DNA of 64,000 nucleotides from an uncultured Planctomycetaceae bacterium (lineage in GTDB: Bacteria; Planctomycetota; Planctomycetia; Planctomycetales; Planctomycetaceae): positions 640,001 to 704,000 of the forward strand of contig CAWFAK010000005.1 in assembly GCA_963813715.1 (NCBI GenBank), in the 5' to 3' direction. Shown here piece after piece: positions 2,990-33,880 of this stretch. Every line of letters starts with the position of its first letter. Position 1 is the first letter of the stretch. Under the pieces are notes generated by a model. The model ran no database searches and had not been told where the DNA came from. It saw only the letters and a program-made list of their open reading frames with translations. The position numbers were made by a program, and so were the translations under genes.

Positions 2990-3390
2990 GGGAGCGGGAC
3001 GGGACACATTGTTTCACCGGGAAACAAGCGGCATTTGTGCGGAGCGAAACGGGACGGGATCGAATTGAGACAGGCGCGACGGCGAGCGCAGCCTGCCCCA
3101 CAAAATTCAGACGCAGACTTCACCTTTCCAATTTAGCGGGACGGGACACGTTGTTTCACCGAGCCGATCCCGGCGAATTTGCTCCTTCGCTCAGCCCGCC
3201 AAGCTCGATCGAGCGCGGCGGGACCGCGAGCCCGCGGGGACCGCAATTGGATCGCCCGCCGCCCGCGAGCCGGTCTGCTGGTGGTGGGGATCCGTTTTCA
3301 CATAAGGGAGAAAAGGATCCCCAGCAGCGCGATGCGGCAACTGTCCCGCGGTGACAAGAAATTCATCCCCGGCGGGGTGGGGACGCTTTT
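2990..3390 (+). repeat. Continuation of the CGGGACGGGAC motif cluster, with a GGGGATCC...GGATCCCC hairpin and TTCATCCCCGGCGGG block
   Basis: Blocks shared with 33480-33630 (+) and 58250-58300 (-). Confidence 0.7.
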
Positions 3391-4126: not shown

Positions 4127-5146
4127 TTAAGTCGGTTGCTGGCTGAGCGAGTAGGGTTGGCCCGTCTTCAAGATCGCTGTCATCAGGCACAACAACCGGC
4201 GGGCCACGGCGACGATCGCCTTCTTGGCACGCACGCGCAACTTCAATCGTTCATAAATCCGACGCCAACGTAACGAGTGCTGAACCAGCCGCCAGGCGGC
4301 TTCGACCAGCGTCGAGCGCAGCAGCGTCGAACCGTTCTTCTCCAGGTGCAGCTCCCGACTCTTGCCCGCACTCTCGCGTTGACCCGGTGAGAGCCCTGCG
4401 TAAGCGACGACCCGCTTTTGCGAACCGAAGCGATCAATGTCTGCCAACTCGGCCAGCACAACTTCGGTGGTCACGAAGCCCACTCCGGGGATCGTCCGCA
4501 ACAGCGTCCGCGCTTCCTGCTCGCAAAGCGGCGCCGCCTCGGCGAACTCCTTCAGCCGGGCGTTGACGGCCAGCAGCTGACGCCTCCCGAAGTGCAACTC
4601 TTCGACCATTTGATCCACGGCGAACCGATCCGCTCCCAAGAGAGGCACTTGGGCGAGATACGCCAACCCGTCCACGGTGAACAGACTGGGACGATCCGCG
4701 TTGTAGTCGCAGAGAATGCGGCGCAGACGGTTCTTGACGGAGGTCAATCGCCGTTGAACGCCGCCCCGCTGACGCACCAGTCGTCGATGCTCATGCTGCC
4801 GCGGAGTCGCCCGGTAAGACGTCGGAATCATGTCCAAGGCCAGGAACTCCGCGAGGATTTGCGCGTCGAGCCGATCGCTTTTACGCGTGCTCTCGGCAAT
4901 CACACGCAGCTTCTTGGGGTGGGCCAACAACACGCGATGGGCCACGGGCTCGATCAATCGCACGAACCATTCGTAGCTGGCGGTCGCTTCCACGACAGCC
5001 TCGAACTCCCCGAGCCTCTCGAAAAATGCGAGGATGCTCCGCTCTTCGCCACAACGCACGGTCCGACGCTCCAAGACCCGCCGCAATTGGTCGACGACGC
5101 AAATCGTGATAGTCTGCTTGTGTAGGTCGCAGCCGGCAAATTTCAT
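4127..5146 (-). CDS. IS110-family DEDD recombinase/transposase
   Basis: GCDLHK, VEATA and KSDRLDA (DEDD RuvC fold); TIPGVG, YAGLSP..RESAG (catalytic Ser), AIVAVARRL. AAGGA RBS. Confidence 0.95.
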   Translation of the reverse strand: MKFAGCDLHKQTITICVVDQLRRVLERRTVRCGEERSILAFFERLGEFEAVVEATASYEWFVRLIEPVAHRVLLAHPKKLRVIAESTRKSDRLDAQILAEFLALDMIPTSYRATPRQHEHRRLVRQRGGVQRRLTSVKNRLRRILCDYNADRPSLFTVDGLAYLAQVPLLGADRFAVDQMVEELHFGRRQLLAVNARLKEFAEAAPLCEQEARTLLRTIPGVGFVTTEVVLAELADIDRFGSQKRVVAYAGLSPGQRESAGKSRELHLEKNGSTLLRSTLVEAAWRLVQHSLRWRRIYERLKLRVRAKKAIVAVARRLLCLMTAILKTGQPYSLSQQPT

Positions 5147-5400
5147 GGCGGTGTCCTTTTGTGGAAACGGTTTGCAACAAACTCCGTTTACCACGTTCAA
5201 GCACAACCACCAACCGGCTCGGCCTACCTCTTACCGCTCCTCATAGCTTCACCCCTGACGCGCCGCCGGATCCAAAAGCCGCAGCGTGTCAGGGGCATGC
5301 CCCTGGGTTTTGAGGGGTGACGCCGATACACTGCGCGAAGATTGCACGGGTCCTGGGATGATTGGCGCGAACAGCCTTTTTGCCTACGGAGAATGTCGAG

Positions 5401-16251: not shown

Positions 16252-16968
16252 TCAGACTGAGACGAGTTCCTTCATTTCGCGGACGGCCCGTTCGAAGCCG
16301 ACCATCACCGCGCGGGCCACGATGCTGTGACCGATGTTGAGTTCGCTGACGCCGGGGATGCGGGCGACTGGAACCACGTTGCGGTAGGTCAGGCCGTGGC
16401 CCATGTGTAGAAGCAGTCCCCGTTCCCGGGCCCAGTGTCCAGCGTCGATGAGCTGCGTCAGTTCGGCCTCTCGATCGGCCGGATTCGTGGCGTCCGCGTA
16501 TCGGCCCGTGTGCAGTTCGACCGCGTGGGCGCCCAGTTGCTCGGCCGCGTCGATCTGGGCCCGATCGGCGTCGATAAACAGGCTCACCTCGATGCCCGCC
16601 TCCAGCAGACGGTCAATGCAGCGAGCGACGCGCTCCCGATTGCCGACGACGTCGAGGCCGCCTTCGGTCGTCACTTCCTCGCGCCGTTCGGGAACGAGAG
16701 TCGCCTGGTCCGGATGCACGTCGATCGCAATCTCGGTGATGCTCGGCTCGGCCGCCATCTCCAGGTTGAGCTTCACCTGCACCGTTTGCTTCATCACGCG
16801 CAGATCGCGGTCTTGAATGTGCCGACGATCCTCGCGGAGGTGCAGTGTGATGCTGTCCGCCCCGGCCAGCTCGGCGAGAGCGGCGGCCCACACCGGGTCG
16901 GGCTCGATCGTCCGGCGGGCCTGTCGGATCGTGGCGACGTGGTCGATATTGACGCCCAGTCGTGGCAT
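16252..16968 (-). CDS. pdxJ: Pyridoxine 5'-phosphate synthase
   Basis: [46 protein letters not shown]. Confidence 0.98.
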
Positions 16969-17148
16969 CGGCTCTCCTCGCTACCTCAAAACTGCTGCCT
17001 GATTCTGCACAGTTTACCCGCCTTTGTGCTTACCCGCCGTTGTGCCCACCTCGACACGCCGGGAGCGCGGCCAGGCTCACGCGACTGGATCGTCCATCGC
17101 AATTTGGCACCTCCCAGCGCATCGCTTGGATGGGCCTGTCCTGCAATG

Positions 17149-17182
17149 CATGGCCACGCAAAGCCATGGGCCATGGCACTCC
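17149..17182 (-). repeat. REP-like hairpin
   Basis: Reverse complement GGAGTGCCATGGCCCATGGCTTTGCGTGGCCA; same GGGTG(C/G)-like head as other REPs here. Confidence 0.5.
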
Positions 17183-17206: not shown

Positions 17207-17290
17207 CGGGGTGACTGGGGTCCATGTGTTAGCCGCGCGCCCAGGTCCACACCGCCGGTCTCCTTGTTCAAATGAAAGTGTCCGGACCGG
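17207..17290. repeat. Partial array unit (right half of the ~205 bp unit)
   Basis: ACCGCCGGTCTCCTTGTTCAAATGAAAGTGTCCGGACCGG (17251-17290) is identical to 18055-18094. Confidence 0.9.
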
Positions 17291-17308
17291 GTAGTGGGGG
17301 CGTTTGAA

Positions 17309-17701
17309 TTACGGTTTTTCGCGATTGGCACGGGAATTTGTGGAGCGAGGGCGCATCGCCTTGTCGACGTTCCAGCCAGAGAGATGGTCTCGGAACTGGC
17401 CTGCATGCTGGTCCCAGATAAGGTCGAAGTGAAGGCGGAGCGCTTCGCCTCGCGCGTCGTCAATCCAGAATTCGACGCGGTTAGTCAGTGTTGAGCCTCC
17501 GGTTTGAGGCCATCCAATCTTCATCGCATCGCAGGACTCGCTAAAAGACATTCCCGTCTTCAGCCGTTGCTCGGCAATGCGGAGAGGGCTTTCGGCAAGT
17601 GGATTGCCACCGATGCTCGCGATGAAGAGCGCCGCGAGGACCATGATACCGAGACATTGGGGAACGGCCTTGATCCAGGCCGTCGGTACTTCGTCGCTCA
17701 T
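17309..17701 (-). CDS. Hypothetical membrane-anchored protein (130 aa), cassette ORF2
   Basis: N-terminal TM helix followed by RLKTGMSFSE, reminiscent of the SmpA/BamE-like I..GM motif (inference). Confidence 0.55.
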   Translation of the reverse strand: MSDEVPTAWIKAVPQCLGIMVLAALFIASIGGNPLAESPLRIAEQRLKTGMSFSESCDAMKIGWPQTGGSTLTNRVEFWIDDARGEALRLHFDLIWDQHAGQFRDHLSGWNVDKAMRPRSTNSRANREKP

Positions 17702-17705
17702 GCCG

Positions 17706-17849
17706 TCATTCCGCGCGACCTTCGTAGTCGAGGATCCCCCGAACCCGATAAGACCCATATTGGGCGTATGATGCGAGCAAAGCGAACGCGAAGGCGAGCA
17801 CTGTGAGCACGACAACCGCAATGAATACGTATCGCTTGCTTCGGCTCAT
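17706..17849 (-). CDS. Small membrane peptide (47 aa, MSRSKRYVFIAVVVLTVLAFAFALLASY...), cassette ORF1, leaderless
   Basis: Translated by hand, as it is below the ORF-track cutoff. TAGAAT at 17856-17861 lies 6 nt before the ATG. Basic N-terminus plus one TM helix. Confidence 0.5.
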   Translation of the reverse strand: MSRSKRYVFIAVVVLTVLAFAFALLASYAQYGSYRVRGILDYEGRAE

Positions 17850-17875
17850 GCCGTCATTCTAGCGGCGGCCACCCC

Positions 17876-18510
17876 CCGGATTCAGACTTCGCCCTAAAAG
17901 CTATCCGCTGCGCCTCTTAGCACCGGTCTAAATCCGAATTGTGAAGATCAGACCGGACCTGACTCGATTGGCAGTGACGCTATCTAAGCCAATCACGCCT
18001 GAGCCAATCAGGGGGGTGGCTGCGTCGAGGGGTCAGGCTCGCCCCCAGGTCACAACCGCCGGTCTCCTTGTTCAAATGAAAGTGTCCGGACCGGATTCAG
18101 ACTTCGTCCTAAACTGCAGCCATTGCACCTCTTAACCCCGGTCTGAATCGGAATTGTGAAGATTAGACCGGACCGGACCTGACTCGACTGGCTGCGACGA
18201 TATCCGGGCCAAGCGGGAGAGTAGCTTGGTCGAGCCGTCAGGCTCGCCCCGCGGTCCCGGACCGCCGGTCCCTGTCTGTAAATGAAAGAGTCCGGACCGG
18301 ATTCAGACTTCGCCCTAAACCGCAGCTGCTGCGACGCTTAACTCCGGTCTAAATCCGAATTGTGAAGAGGAGACCGGACTGGACCTGACTCCGATGTTGT
18401 GCTCGCAGTCGAGCCCAGCTCGGGTGGCTGGGGTCGAGCCGTCAGGCTCGCCCCCAGGTCCGCAACCGCCGGACTCGTTGTTCAAACGAAAGTGTCCGGA
18501 CCGGACCTGA
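17876..18510. repeat. Tandem array of three structured units (17876-18090, 18091-18296, 18297-18500)
   Basis: Each unit starts CCGGATTCAGACTTCGYCCTAAA, contains GTCTRAATCSGAATTGTGAAGA, GGACCTGACTC and GTCAGGCTCGCCCC, and ends AAAYGAAAGWGTCCGGA. Confidence 0.95.
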
Positions 18511-18607: not shown

Positions 18608-18731
18608 CTCCATTCTGCCACAAATTGCCAACCAACCAAGATCGGTTTTCTACGCCGCTCAGTTTCTCGGTCGCTCGGCCGGAATGCAGACGGGAGATTT
18701 ACCGGGGGTGCCAGGGTTGAGCTTGCTCGAG
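18608..18731 (-). repeat. REP-headed leader element, copy B
   Basis: Reverse-complement homolog of 967-1107. Confidence 0.8.
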
Positions 18732-18796
18732 CGTGCTCTTAACGGGTTCAGCAACCGTCGTCATCAGGCGGAAGGAGCAAAGGGGCAGACGCACGG

Positions 18797-20790
18797 TCAA
18801 TCGCCGTTCGGGCCGTCGATCACCAGCGTGCAATCTGGCAGGCTCTCGAGGAACTGTCGGCCGTACGGTTTGCTGCGAATCCGCGGATCGAGAATCGCGA
18901 CCTGCCCGGTGTCCGCCTTGCGGCGAATCAGGCGTCCGAAGCCCTGCTTGAGTTTGATCACGGCCTCGGGCACCTGGTATTCGATGAAGGGATTGCCCCC
19001 TCGCTCACGAATCGCCTCCAGCCGCGCCTCGAGCAGCGGATGATCGGGCACGCTGAACGGGAGCTTGGTGATGATCACGTTCTGCAGCGCGTCGCCGGGC
19101 ACGTCGACTCCCTGCCAGAAGCTGTCGGTGCCGAACAACACGCCGGCGGCGTCCTTGCGGAAGCGTTCCAACATCAGCGAATTCGGCAGCCCGTCGGACT
19201 GGCAGTAAAGCGTGTATTGATGCCGGGCGAACCATTGAGCGAGTCGCTCGGCACAGCTCTTGAGCATTTTGTAACTGGTAAACAGCACAAACGCGCGGCC
19301 GTGCGTTTCCGTCACATGGTGTTGGATGCGTTCGCAGACCGCCTGCTCATACTCACGGGGATGGGCGGCCGGGTCGGGCATGCCGTCGGAGAGGATCAAT
19401 CGCGCCTGACGCTTGAAGTCGAACGGGCTGCCGAGCCGGCACTCGTCGGCGGCGCCAGCCCCCAGGCGGTCCTTAATGAAGTCGAAGCTGCGCTTGCCGA
19501 CGGCGAGCGTGGCGCTGGTGAGGATCACCGTCTTCACCCGGTCGAAGAGTTCGCTCTTGAGCACCGGGCCAACTTCGATCGGTGCACAGTGCAGCTCGGT
19601 GCGCGGCCGTTTTCCCTGTCGGACCTCGATCCAGTAGACGCAACCGGGCAACGACTGCTTGAGCCAGGCCGCCAGCGATTGGCCCAGCTCGATACAGCGC
19701 TGGGCGGCGGCCGTCAGCTCGATCGACTGTTCTTCGTTCACGATCTCCTTCGCGGCAGAGTTCATCGTCGCTGCCAGCTCGGTGAGCGCGGGGGTGACTT
19801 TGTTCACGACGTCGAGCGGTTGTCGGAGGCGGCCATTTTCGCTTCCGTGAACCTCGTGCCAGTCGCGGAGATCCTCGAGCAAGTCCCGCACACCGTGGCG
19901 GATGCGGTCGACCAGCCGCTGCGCGTCGAGAGTTTGTGGTGCACCAGCAGGCCGCGCTGCGTGTAGTCGTTGTAGAGCTTGTTGAGCAGGTAATCGAACT
20001 GTCCGCTGGTGAGCGTCAGTCCCATCCGGTCGCCGGCGACCGCTTCGACGGTGTGAGCTTCGTCGAGCACGACGACTTCATAATCGGGCAGCAAGCTCAC
20101 CCCTTCCCGCCGCAACGCCAGGTCAGAGAAGAAGAGGGCGTGATTGACCACCAGGACGTCGGCGTCCCAAATCCGCCGCCGCGCCTGGTAATAGAAGCAG
20201 TCGTTGTACGTGGGGCATTTTTTCCCCAGGCAATTGCCACGATCGCTAGCGACTTCGTCCCAGACGTTGGGGAACGGCCGCAGCGACAAATCGCTGCGCG
20301 TGCCGTCGGTCGTCCGCCGCGACCAGTCGAGGATCGTCTGCAGCTGCTCGAATTCCTGCTCCTGAAAGAAAATCGATTTGGCCCGTTCGACGGCGGCGTT
20401 CATCCGCCGCAGACTGATGTAGTTCCCGCGCCCTTTCGCCAGCACGCACGAGAACTCAACCGGCAGCACTGAACGCAGAAAGGGGATGTCCCGCGTGACG
20501 AGCTGTTCCTGCAGGCTGATCGTGTGGGTCGAAATGACGAGGGGCTTGCGGGGGCGTTCCGTGGTGCCCGTCGGATCGTGTTCCGCGGTGACTGCCAGAA
20601 TGGCCGGGACGAGGTAGGCGAAACTCTTGCCCACGCCAGTTCCCGCTTCGACCAGCAAATGCCTCGACTCCGCGATGGCCCGCTCGACCGCTTCGGCCAT
20701 TTCCAGCTGCTGTGGCCGGTGTTCGTAACTGTCGAGGCGCCGGGCGATTCGGCCGTCACTGCCGAGCACGGAGGTGGCATTGAGCGTCAA
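18797..20790 (-). CDS. dinG: DinG/YoaA-family ATP-dependent DNA helicase (frameshift near 19920)
   Basis: RPQQ Q-motif, EAGTGVGKS, DEAH, LTSATL, LFTSY, QGVDVPG, QGFGRLIRR. Confidence 0.9.
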
Positions 20791-33479: not shown

Positions 33480-33880
33480 GCTCGGCGACGACGAAAGTTT
33501 CGTCCCCGGCGGGGTGGGGATCCTTTTTTCGGTAGAGGGGAAGAATCCCCGGCGCCTCCGGCAGACGATTCGGGACGGGGCACGGCGGCGGGACGGGACA
33601 CGTTGTTTCATCGAGAAAAGCGCGGCGAAATAGACCTTCCACCCGGGTCCCGAGAGCGGCTGAAAGTGCGGGACACATTGCTTTGCGTCCACGGTCCCGC
33701 GTCCAAAGTCGCAGGGAGCACGAGGGAATCGTGCTGGCGGTGGGACGGGGCATATCCTCTTGCTTGGTAGTGGATCCACCAGGACGGTGACCCAGCGCCG
33801 GGACGGAACGCAAGGAGCTGCTCCCTCCGAATCCAAAGCGGACTGGCGAGGGAAGGAACGGGACGGGACGCGGGACTGGT
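33480..33880 (+). repeat. CGGGACGGGAC motif cluster, third locus
   Basis: TTCGTCCCCGGCGGGGTGGGGA, CGATTCGGGACGGG and GCGGGACGGGACACGTTGTTTCATCGAG are shared with the 1.2-3.4 kb cluster. Confidence 0.8.

Follow-up and report, generated by a model that had tools for sequence, protein, structure and literature searches.

Rolling-circle transposons, such as IS91/ISCR and the Helitrons, have one fixed and one variable end and produce no target duplication. Elements of the IS1 family carry terminal inverted repeats, generate a 9-bp target duplication and encode a DDE_Tnp_IS1 transposase. In the portions of the REP literature considered here, the BIME unit is composed of two inverted REPs and a linker (PMC3333891, PMC6006769), and one study, whose main text does not contain the word 'helicase', has proposed that RAYT amplifies REP arrays in a rolling-circle-like manner (PMC3333891). 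The spread of REP-containing arrays is not yet explained: RAYTs require single-stranded DNA, and the part of the REP/RAYT literature examined names no dedicated source of it. In SaPIs, according to the section of the study used here, a C-terminal winged helix binds short iterons located just 3' of the gene (PMC9371898).

Here we describe a tandem array from an uncultured Planctomycetaceae bacterium, found in a stretch of 64,000 nucleotides that was analysed as a whole and is called the window below. A literature search, mainly of the main texts of open-access papers, returned nothing relevant to a helicase-linked element family of the kind reported here. The initial annotation had regarded the array as a candidate for an undescribed system, which is borne out in that the array belongs to an undescribed family and nothing in the literature searched matches it.

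Organization of the array

The array sits between two genes assigned by Pfam, pdxJ (16252 to 16968, minus strand; PF03740, E = 3e-98) and a dinG-type helicase gene (18797 to 20790, minus strand). The latter is spread over two reading frames, at 18797 to 19891 and 19804 to 20790; frameshifted-looking genes are frequent in the assembly, probably as a result of read errors. Three full units and a half unit had been claimed at this locus, and their coordinates were reproduced, with unit 1 at 17876 to 18090 (215 bp), unit 2 at 18091 to 18296 (206 bp), unit 3 at 18297 to 18500 (204 bp; features of this leader-proximal type of unit reach 18508) and the half unit at about 17208 to 17289. All three full units are on the minus strand, and their pairwise identity is 77 to 85%. 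A profile built from these same units recovers them with nhmmer E values below 1e-60 and gives 33 matches at 11 loci genome-wide, each locus having one to three units.

Each unit contains a TAA-N19-TTA module, an inverted pair (CCGGTCT/AGACCGG in unit 1), a single REP and a core motif. These lie at 17895 to 17919, 17923 to 17956, 18014 to 18048 and 18082 to 18092 in unit 1, at 18110 to 18134, 18138 to 18171, about 18220 to 18252 (a decayed REP) and 18288 to 18298 (a core variant) in unit 2, and at 18316 to 18340, 18344 to 18377, 18422 to 18457 and 18492 to 18502 in unit 3. A 20-mer at the end of unit 3 (18489 to 18508) equals the 3' end of two helicase genes, which account for 2 of its 8 occurrences in the genome. 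The half unit (17208 to 17289) is made up of a decayed REP, a linker and the core motif at 17278 to 17288, and its last 9 bp (17281 to 17289) are an IS target. The GACCGGAC motifs attributed to the units are present in them.

In an alignment of 44 distinct copies of the conserved half of the unit, the core, both trinucleotides (TAA and TTA) and the inverted pair show 97 to 100% conservation, compared with 73% for the 19 bases between TAA and TTA. The TAA-N19-TTA spacing is free of gaps in all 44 copies, and the offset of TAA from the core is identical in 17 of 17 matches. The module is bordered by a 10-bp direct repeat, and the centre of unit 2, counted by hand, is about 48% G+C, where the genome as a whole has 63%. 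The conserved feature of the unit is thus the motif together with its spacing and, as both are kept while the interiors drift, the pattern suggests protein sites on double-stranded DNA. The proposal that stems and motifs are conserved while interiors drift holds for the motifs, but the stem carries no compensatory signal. The inverted pair itself is present in the units, but it has a near-invariant mismatch in 42 of 44 copies and is lost from divergent copies; the REP hairpin is likewise present, with its best copy at 18422 to 18457, but decays in most units.

Divergent and related units occur elsewhere. At locus L141 (genome C5:382800-384500), a gene of about 240 codons sits between two of three divergent units, and at L022, which has a single unit, the stretch between two units is absent by comparison with L141. 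Loci L142, L143 and L144 hold a sister module with a unit-like layout and another interior, in about 10 copies, in which the inverted-pair stem is not kept.

The leader and the cassette are found at one locus with the units, as the initial annotation had it. On the leader side, a bipartite motif at 18610 to 18650 (minus strand) consists of a 15-bp box, a 15-bp spacer and an extended -10-like box; it is directed into the array and forms the polar start of the element family described below. The outer part of what had been called the leader (18681 to 18795) is a REP doublet (REPIN) of a family other than that of the in-unit REP, with its first REP at 18707 to 18740, a decayed second REP and the usual flank kept. 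This doublet marks the leader-side boundary, and in a contig of run X18 the sequences come together again at 18783. On the far side, the similarity to the empty site of G002 ends near 17080, close to a distal-end motif (17088 to 17111) that is found elsewhere only in the paralogous C8 array and that array's orthologues and lies near the far boundary of the element. A palindromic repeat at 17126 to 17180 belongs to another REP-like family that is multi-copy in relatives.

A polar family of leader and core motif

The core motif, GG[AT]C[CG]GGACAC, has 314 matches in the genome, which fall into 117 clusters, and every one of the 80 clusters with several matches has a single orientation. The search for leaders used a split weight matrix, for which ten array leaders served as the training set, and a threshold of 22 bits. 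This gave 78 matches at or above threshold in the genome versus 2 in the reversed genome. A core motif follows within 2 kb downstream on the same strand of 57 of the 78 leaders, with none upstream and none on the opposite strand; after removal of the 10 training sites the count is 47 of 68. Viewed from the motifs, a leader lies upstream of 51 of the 80 multi-motif clusters and downstream of none. From a leader up to the host gene that follows, these loci are mosaics of motif modules and REPs, and dozens of gene-less loci, the window array among them, share the order and strand of leader and core. The window array is one subfamily of this leader-plus-motif family. The elements show no replichore or lagging-strand bias (29 versus 24, with a weak skew).

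A second member, of a different subfamily, is located in the window at 1047 to 1576 (genome C5:641047-641576). Further motif copies are found near 3007 to 3149 and at 33601, and an IS110 at about 4130 to 5149. One match to the 17-base core pattern was seen in a viral contig (L191).

A solitary helicase gene shares the leader and the core motif

Clustering of the open reading frames near the motif clusters yielded IS transposases and one other recurrent gene, encoding an AAA_25 ATPase with a weak MarR-type winged helix (a MarR_2-like match below cut-off). This helicase-like gene is present at 11 loci in the genome, several copies being frameshifted. The bipartite leader motif occurs also before these AAA_25-wHTH genes, and 4 of the 78 leader matches directly precede AAA_25 genes; they were recovered with the split matrix only, a full-length ungapped leader matrix returning no helicase gene. 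At the 3' end of the helicase gene the core motif is found at 5 of the 11 loci (in three sequence lineages), the exact motif being absent at the other 6, and in relatives at 17 of 27 loci with no antisense case, these loci being paralogues and not independent of each other; the background is 23 of 2066 long open reading frames. Since the first in-gene copy of the motif also encodes a conserved peptide, the association of motif and helicase could be partly a coding one. The leader pattern and the multi-copy helicase are present in the same 7 of 12 genus genomes, which, as they form a single clade, are not independent events, and the leader pattern is found in none of 49 other relatives. None of the loci compared has a TAA-N19-TTA module next to an intact helicase gene; the module is present in just 2 of the 12 genus genomes, and the link between unit and helicase is made by the leader and a core of 11 to 20 bp.

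The helicase gene has a relative in other genera, in which Prim-Pol, PriCT_1, AAA_25 and a MarR-like winged helix are fused; the two share 40% identity and the same Walker A variant, and the genes of these Prim-Pol-type relatives end in short inverted repeats round a central palindrome. From these features we infer that the helicase gene is a primase-less relative of Prim-Pol-helicase replication proteins. A predicted structure (pLDDT 77.5) gave DnaB, KaiC, RAD51/RecA and T7 gp4 as best matches, with low confidence in the P-loop region. A PDB sequence search found no true relative, and no relative of the helicase was found among viral contigs. The genes adjoining the six helicase loci scanned are host genes or IS, with no integrase and no primase among them.

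Copies of the helicase gene, 87 to 99.7% identical, lie in unrelated flanks. Their common stretch starts with the leader or a REP and ends in a motif-rich tail, often with a REP, and no terminal repeats or target duplication were seen in the 12 paralogue pairs read. Where the core motif is present at their 3' end, the helicase genes have iteron-like short repeats directly 3' of a gene with a C-terminal winged helix; the array has the repeats without an adjacent gene. Some paralogues (L087, L084 and L123) end in other inverted motifs, which resemble other abundant dispersed repeats of this genome, and the loci together suggest one motif type per helicase paralogue.

Distribution and spread of the array

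Outside this genome, the full array was found in 1 of 60 relatives. An exact 23-base pattern matched 5 stretches of genome_contigs, all from one Planctomycetaceae record set and not treated as independent of the genus search, and 16 stretches of metagenomes, 15 of which could be placed by their flanks at loci of this genome. The array as a whole is restricted to a single lineage. Between pdxJ and dinG, the entire block is absent from G002 and from contigs of runs X3 and X18. Unit number and cargo vary between strains, in line with the earlier expectation.

Copies within an array are not homogenized, identity of the conserved module being 89.4% within and 88.6% between arrays. In the variable part, the similarity between leader-proximal units from different loci (0.82) exceeds that between neighbours at one locus (0.76). 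Because of these two results, a two-unit block was probably copied whole together with its leader, with local gain or loss of units later. We consider it probable that the array descends from the helicase-gene element and is non-autonomous. With somewhat less confidence, and on balance, we favour the fuller reading that it is a REP-bounded, non-autonomous copy of that element, with origin-like modules, that was dispersed as a block.

The initial annotation had offered a BIME-like mosaic as the conservative alternative, and this describes the units in so far as they lie outside genes, hold REPs and serve as IS targets, but each has one REP and consists mostly of an origin-like motif module whose core motif and leader also belong to a helicase gene family. 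As a mechanism, it would mean that RAYTs or REP-REP recombination copy a REP with its flanks, and that the helicase-derived motifs hitchhike unbound. The REP present in every unit and the cognate RAYT of the leader-side doublet family, which flanks a RAYT gene on contig C3 and has multiple copies in G003 and G009, would fit such a process. Published precedents, as given in the parts of these papers considered here, include large REP clusters that are reiterated in tandem with their flanks (PMC3733652), cutting and rejoining of such units by TnpA-REP, and REP arrays as IS targets (both PMC3333891). The REP is, however, the most decayed part of the unit, while motifs and spacing are kept; there is a single REP per unit, in uniform orientation, instead of an inverted pair; the copies within an array are not homogenized, as the figures above show; and the strict polarity from leader to motif holds at dozens of loci, some of which lack these REPs. 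We therefore regard passive copying of this kind as rather unlikely, and continue with the reading of the array as a block copied from the helicase-gene element.

Only a minority of loci have a RAYT close by. The genome has 8 RAYT matches, of which 4 lie within 2.5 kb of a core motif (compared with 7.8% of random positions) and 1 lies within 2 kb of a helicase gene. In G003, a helicase gene lies no more than 2 kb from 5 of 15 RAYT matches (binomial p = 2e-7). Among 37 fetched helicase loci a RAYT adjoins 4, one of them probably spurious, and several RAYT types are involved; a common preference for repeat-rich gaps could explain the adjacency. The in-unit REP is abundant as single copies in relatives and forms a normal doublet on contig C9; of 38 loci scanned, 4 have it near a RAYT, in no case on both sides.

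Transcription and RNA structure

The units might instead matter as transcripts: in such a scheme the elements would be mobile promoters or sources of non-coding RNA, the leader transcribing through the units and either the RNA or read-through being relevant. The extended -10-like box of the leader, perfect before two helicase genes and here directed towards pdxJ, would suit this, as would the short contigs from four RNA runs that overlap parts of the units and leader and the folding of unit 2, which is somewhat better than that of shuffled sequences (z of -2.6 and -2.8). On the other hand, a strict sigma-70 promoter scan made no call at the leader, and the contigs, assembled from runs with small shares of such sequence, are silent on strand, start and level, and come from RNA libraries that may contain DNA. 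The two strands of the units also fold alike. An Rfam search of the array returned only a chance match (E = 1.1).

No compensatory base changes are supported in the conserved stems across the 44 copies of the conserved half and the 30 whole units used for a consensus fold. In the stem of the initial annotation, one position fails to pair in 42 of 44 copies; one double change occurs, and 417 of 500 shuffles score as high. The second inverted pair is kept better than the first, and its weak covariation signal (8 of 500 shuffles) can be produced by relatedness alone. In the consensus fold the covariation term is only -0.26 kcal/mol, and the REP hairpin is not part of the fold. The suggestion of a processed structured RNA is thus unsupported, since there is neither covariation nor an Rfam match, and we consider a role of the array through its transcripts improbable.

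A stretch of about 100 conserved bases with short inverted repeats occupies the interval between leader and start codon of several helicase genes (L082, 2150 to 2300; L083, 2530 to 2700; L085, 2250 to 2420), and could be a structured 5' leader RNA.

Insertions in the units

The cassette at 17290 to 17875 (585 bp) is a truncated passenger element of the IS1 family. It starts at 17290, directly after the 9-bp sequence in the core, with its left terminal repeat; the right end, most of the second target copy and the transposase are missing. Its passengers are two micro-genes on the minus strand. Micro-gene 1 (17706 to 17849) encodes a hydrophobic product of 47 aa, is accompanied by a -10-like hexamer at 17856 to 17861 and has a stop that overlaps the next cassette junction, and micro-gene 2 (17309 to 17701) encodes 130 aa with an MSDE-type start, in an enclosing open reading frame without a Pfam match. 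The micro-gene family is found at about 49 sites with a common start junction. The left end follows the identical 9 bp in three further arrays of this genome and at loci L002, L066 and L070. The C7 and C8 copies have both ends and the 9-bp target duplication; the C8 copy is full and encodes an IS1-type transposase (PF03400, E = 1e-9), which the C7 copy lacks. Corresponding sites without the element were also seen: L074, the orthologue of the C8 array, has an empty site with one copy of the 9 bp, and at the window locus a contig of run X3 passes from the half unit to the next unit with no insert. L071 carries a different IS1 remnant at this locus.

Other elements use other positions. An IS110 is inserted in the REP of a unit, at a site that is unoccupied in L065 and L070. 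Inserts flanked by 8-bp duplications, tentatively assigned to IS1595 by their end sequences, are found in the linker at a site that is empty in L070. The IS1-family, IS110 and third IS type enter fixed positions of the units and bring cargo with them. A literature search, mainly of open-access papers, found nothing on IS1 passenger elements. At L090 (genome C15:99000-117000), IS1-family elements with micro-gene passengers are arranged in tandem, some of them 9 bp from the end of another copy. The motif that closes micro-gene cassettes matches the inner part of the IS1 left end.

That the units are recombination sites for some site-specific recombinase, with cargo gained and lost between them, is very improbable: symmetric motifs at fixed spacing, the 10-bp direct repeat flanking the module, the gene between units at one paralogous locus and the absence of exactly the inter-unit stretch at L022 would suit a recombinase, but the nearest integrase-family match on the contig is about 490 kb away, none adjoins the six helicase loci, the cargo here and in C7 and C8 arrived with IS ends and target duplications, and homologous recombination suffices for loss between direct repeats. 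The earlier idea of a dedicated recombination-site array is thereby set aside, the cassette being an IS1-family insertion. The array likewise differs from integrons and cassette arrays, having no adjacent tyrosine recombinase and showing 9-bp and 8-bp duplications at its inserts. Sites of the attC type were considered and rejected, as no integrase lies near the array and their terminal boxes are missing from the units. Three integrase loci that seemed close to family members proved on inspection to have other neighbours.

A model for the spread of the array

The array keeps the polar start motif and the short end motifs of the helicase-gene element, which are predicted helicase loading sites, without the helicase gene and within REP boundaries, and is likely to be a non-autonomous copy of that element. 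It is best read as an IS landing site and as a gene-less member of the polar family that is tied to a solitary, multi-copy helicase. The helicase genes would descend from Prim-Pol-helicase replication proteins in which the 3' end of the gene harbours an origin made up of short inverted repeats, and given this descent the motifs are predicted to be iteron-like sites for the winged helix. A helicase acting in trans would load on the motifs and unwind the DNA, and a RAYT would nick at the bounding REPs. A rolling-circle-like copy would then place the block of leader and units elsewhere, occasionally adding a unit. IS1-family, IS110 and a third type of IS would subsequently enter the fixed unit positions and bring in cargo, and it is these insertions that are observed directly.

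That helicase and RAYT together perform the copying is a tentative proposal. Its broadest form, to which we give slightly less credence still, is a two-part copying system new to bacteria: a helicase of the phage-satellite type, having lost its primase, would have turned into a free mobile gene with many copies; loading on its own iteron modules, it would feed single-stranded DNA to REP-cutting RAYTs, and helicase genes and gene-less origin-plus-REP arrays would spread across the chromosome in the manner of Helitrons and seed insertion hot spots. The clade offers a candidate source of single-stranded DNA in a multi-copy helicase with matching putative loading motifs at dozens of sites. If true, this would explain why IS1, IS110 and other elements, together with their small passenger genes, accumulate at these loci. 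Should the motifs be no more than hitchhikers, they still form a repeat family that is restricted to this lineage, stems from a replication module and has not been described before.

Comparison with known systems

The 585-bp insert is related to IS1-family elements with passenger genes by the terminal inverted repeats and 9-bp duplication of its C7 and C8 copies, of which the window copy keeps the left end, by the DDE_Tnp_IS1 transposase of the C8 copy, in which all three hallmarks are found together, and by the existence of empty sites. It differs in its missing right end and transposase, in having as passengers micro-genes with a common start junction, and in that the element repeatedly picks the same 9 bp of the unit core.

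With rolling-circle transposons the family shares one fixed and one variable end and the lack of a visible target duplication (the ends being those seen on comparison of paralogue pairs, as opposed to exact empty sites), as well as head-to-tail copies and an HUH nuclease and a helicase nearby. In contrast to them, the element has no HUH gene of its own, its candidate nuclease being a RAYT in trans whose genes are separate and adjacent at a minority of loci, and no fixed target sequence is apparent.

The helicase-initiators (Rep) of SaPI/PICI (PMC9371898) resemble the helicase of this genus in the C-terminal winged helix and the short repeats at the 3' end of the gene. A further likeness to that system lies in the relatives of the family, which carry a primase at the N terminus and have a central palindrome with short inverted repeats around it. 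The ATPase here is of the RecA-fold AAA_25 type, and not of the SF3 or MCM type. Moreover, the copies in this genus have no adjoining primase, integrase or island genes, lying among host genes or IS and without a relative in viral contigs, and the origin-like modules are dispersed gene-less over dozens of chromosomal sites.

The BIME-2 and atypical BIME arrays of E. coli, as far as the relevant part of PMC3333891 describes them, are like the array in being extragenic tandem mosaics that contain REPs, vary in number across loci and strains, are IS targets and occur in genomes with RAYT genes. They are unlike it in that here each 205-bp unit has one REP and the copies at a locus are not homogenized (77 to 85% identical in the window), and in that the conserved part here is a motif module of fixed spacing under a polar leader common to a helicase gene family. 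While it falls outside the BIMEs, the SaPI/PICI replicons and the IS91-type elements proper, the array is best read as working like a BIME on a satellite-type origin.
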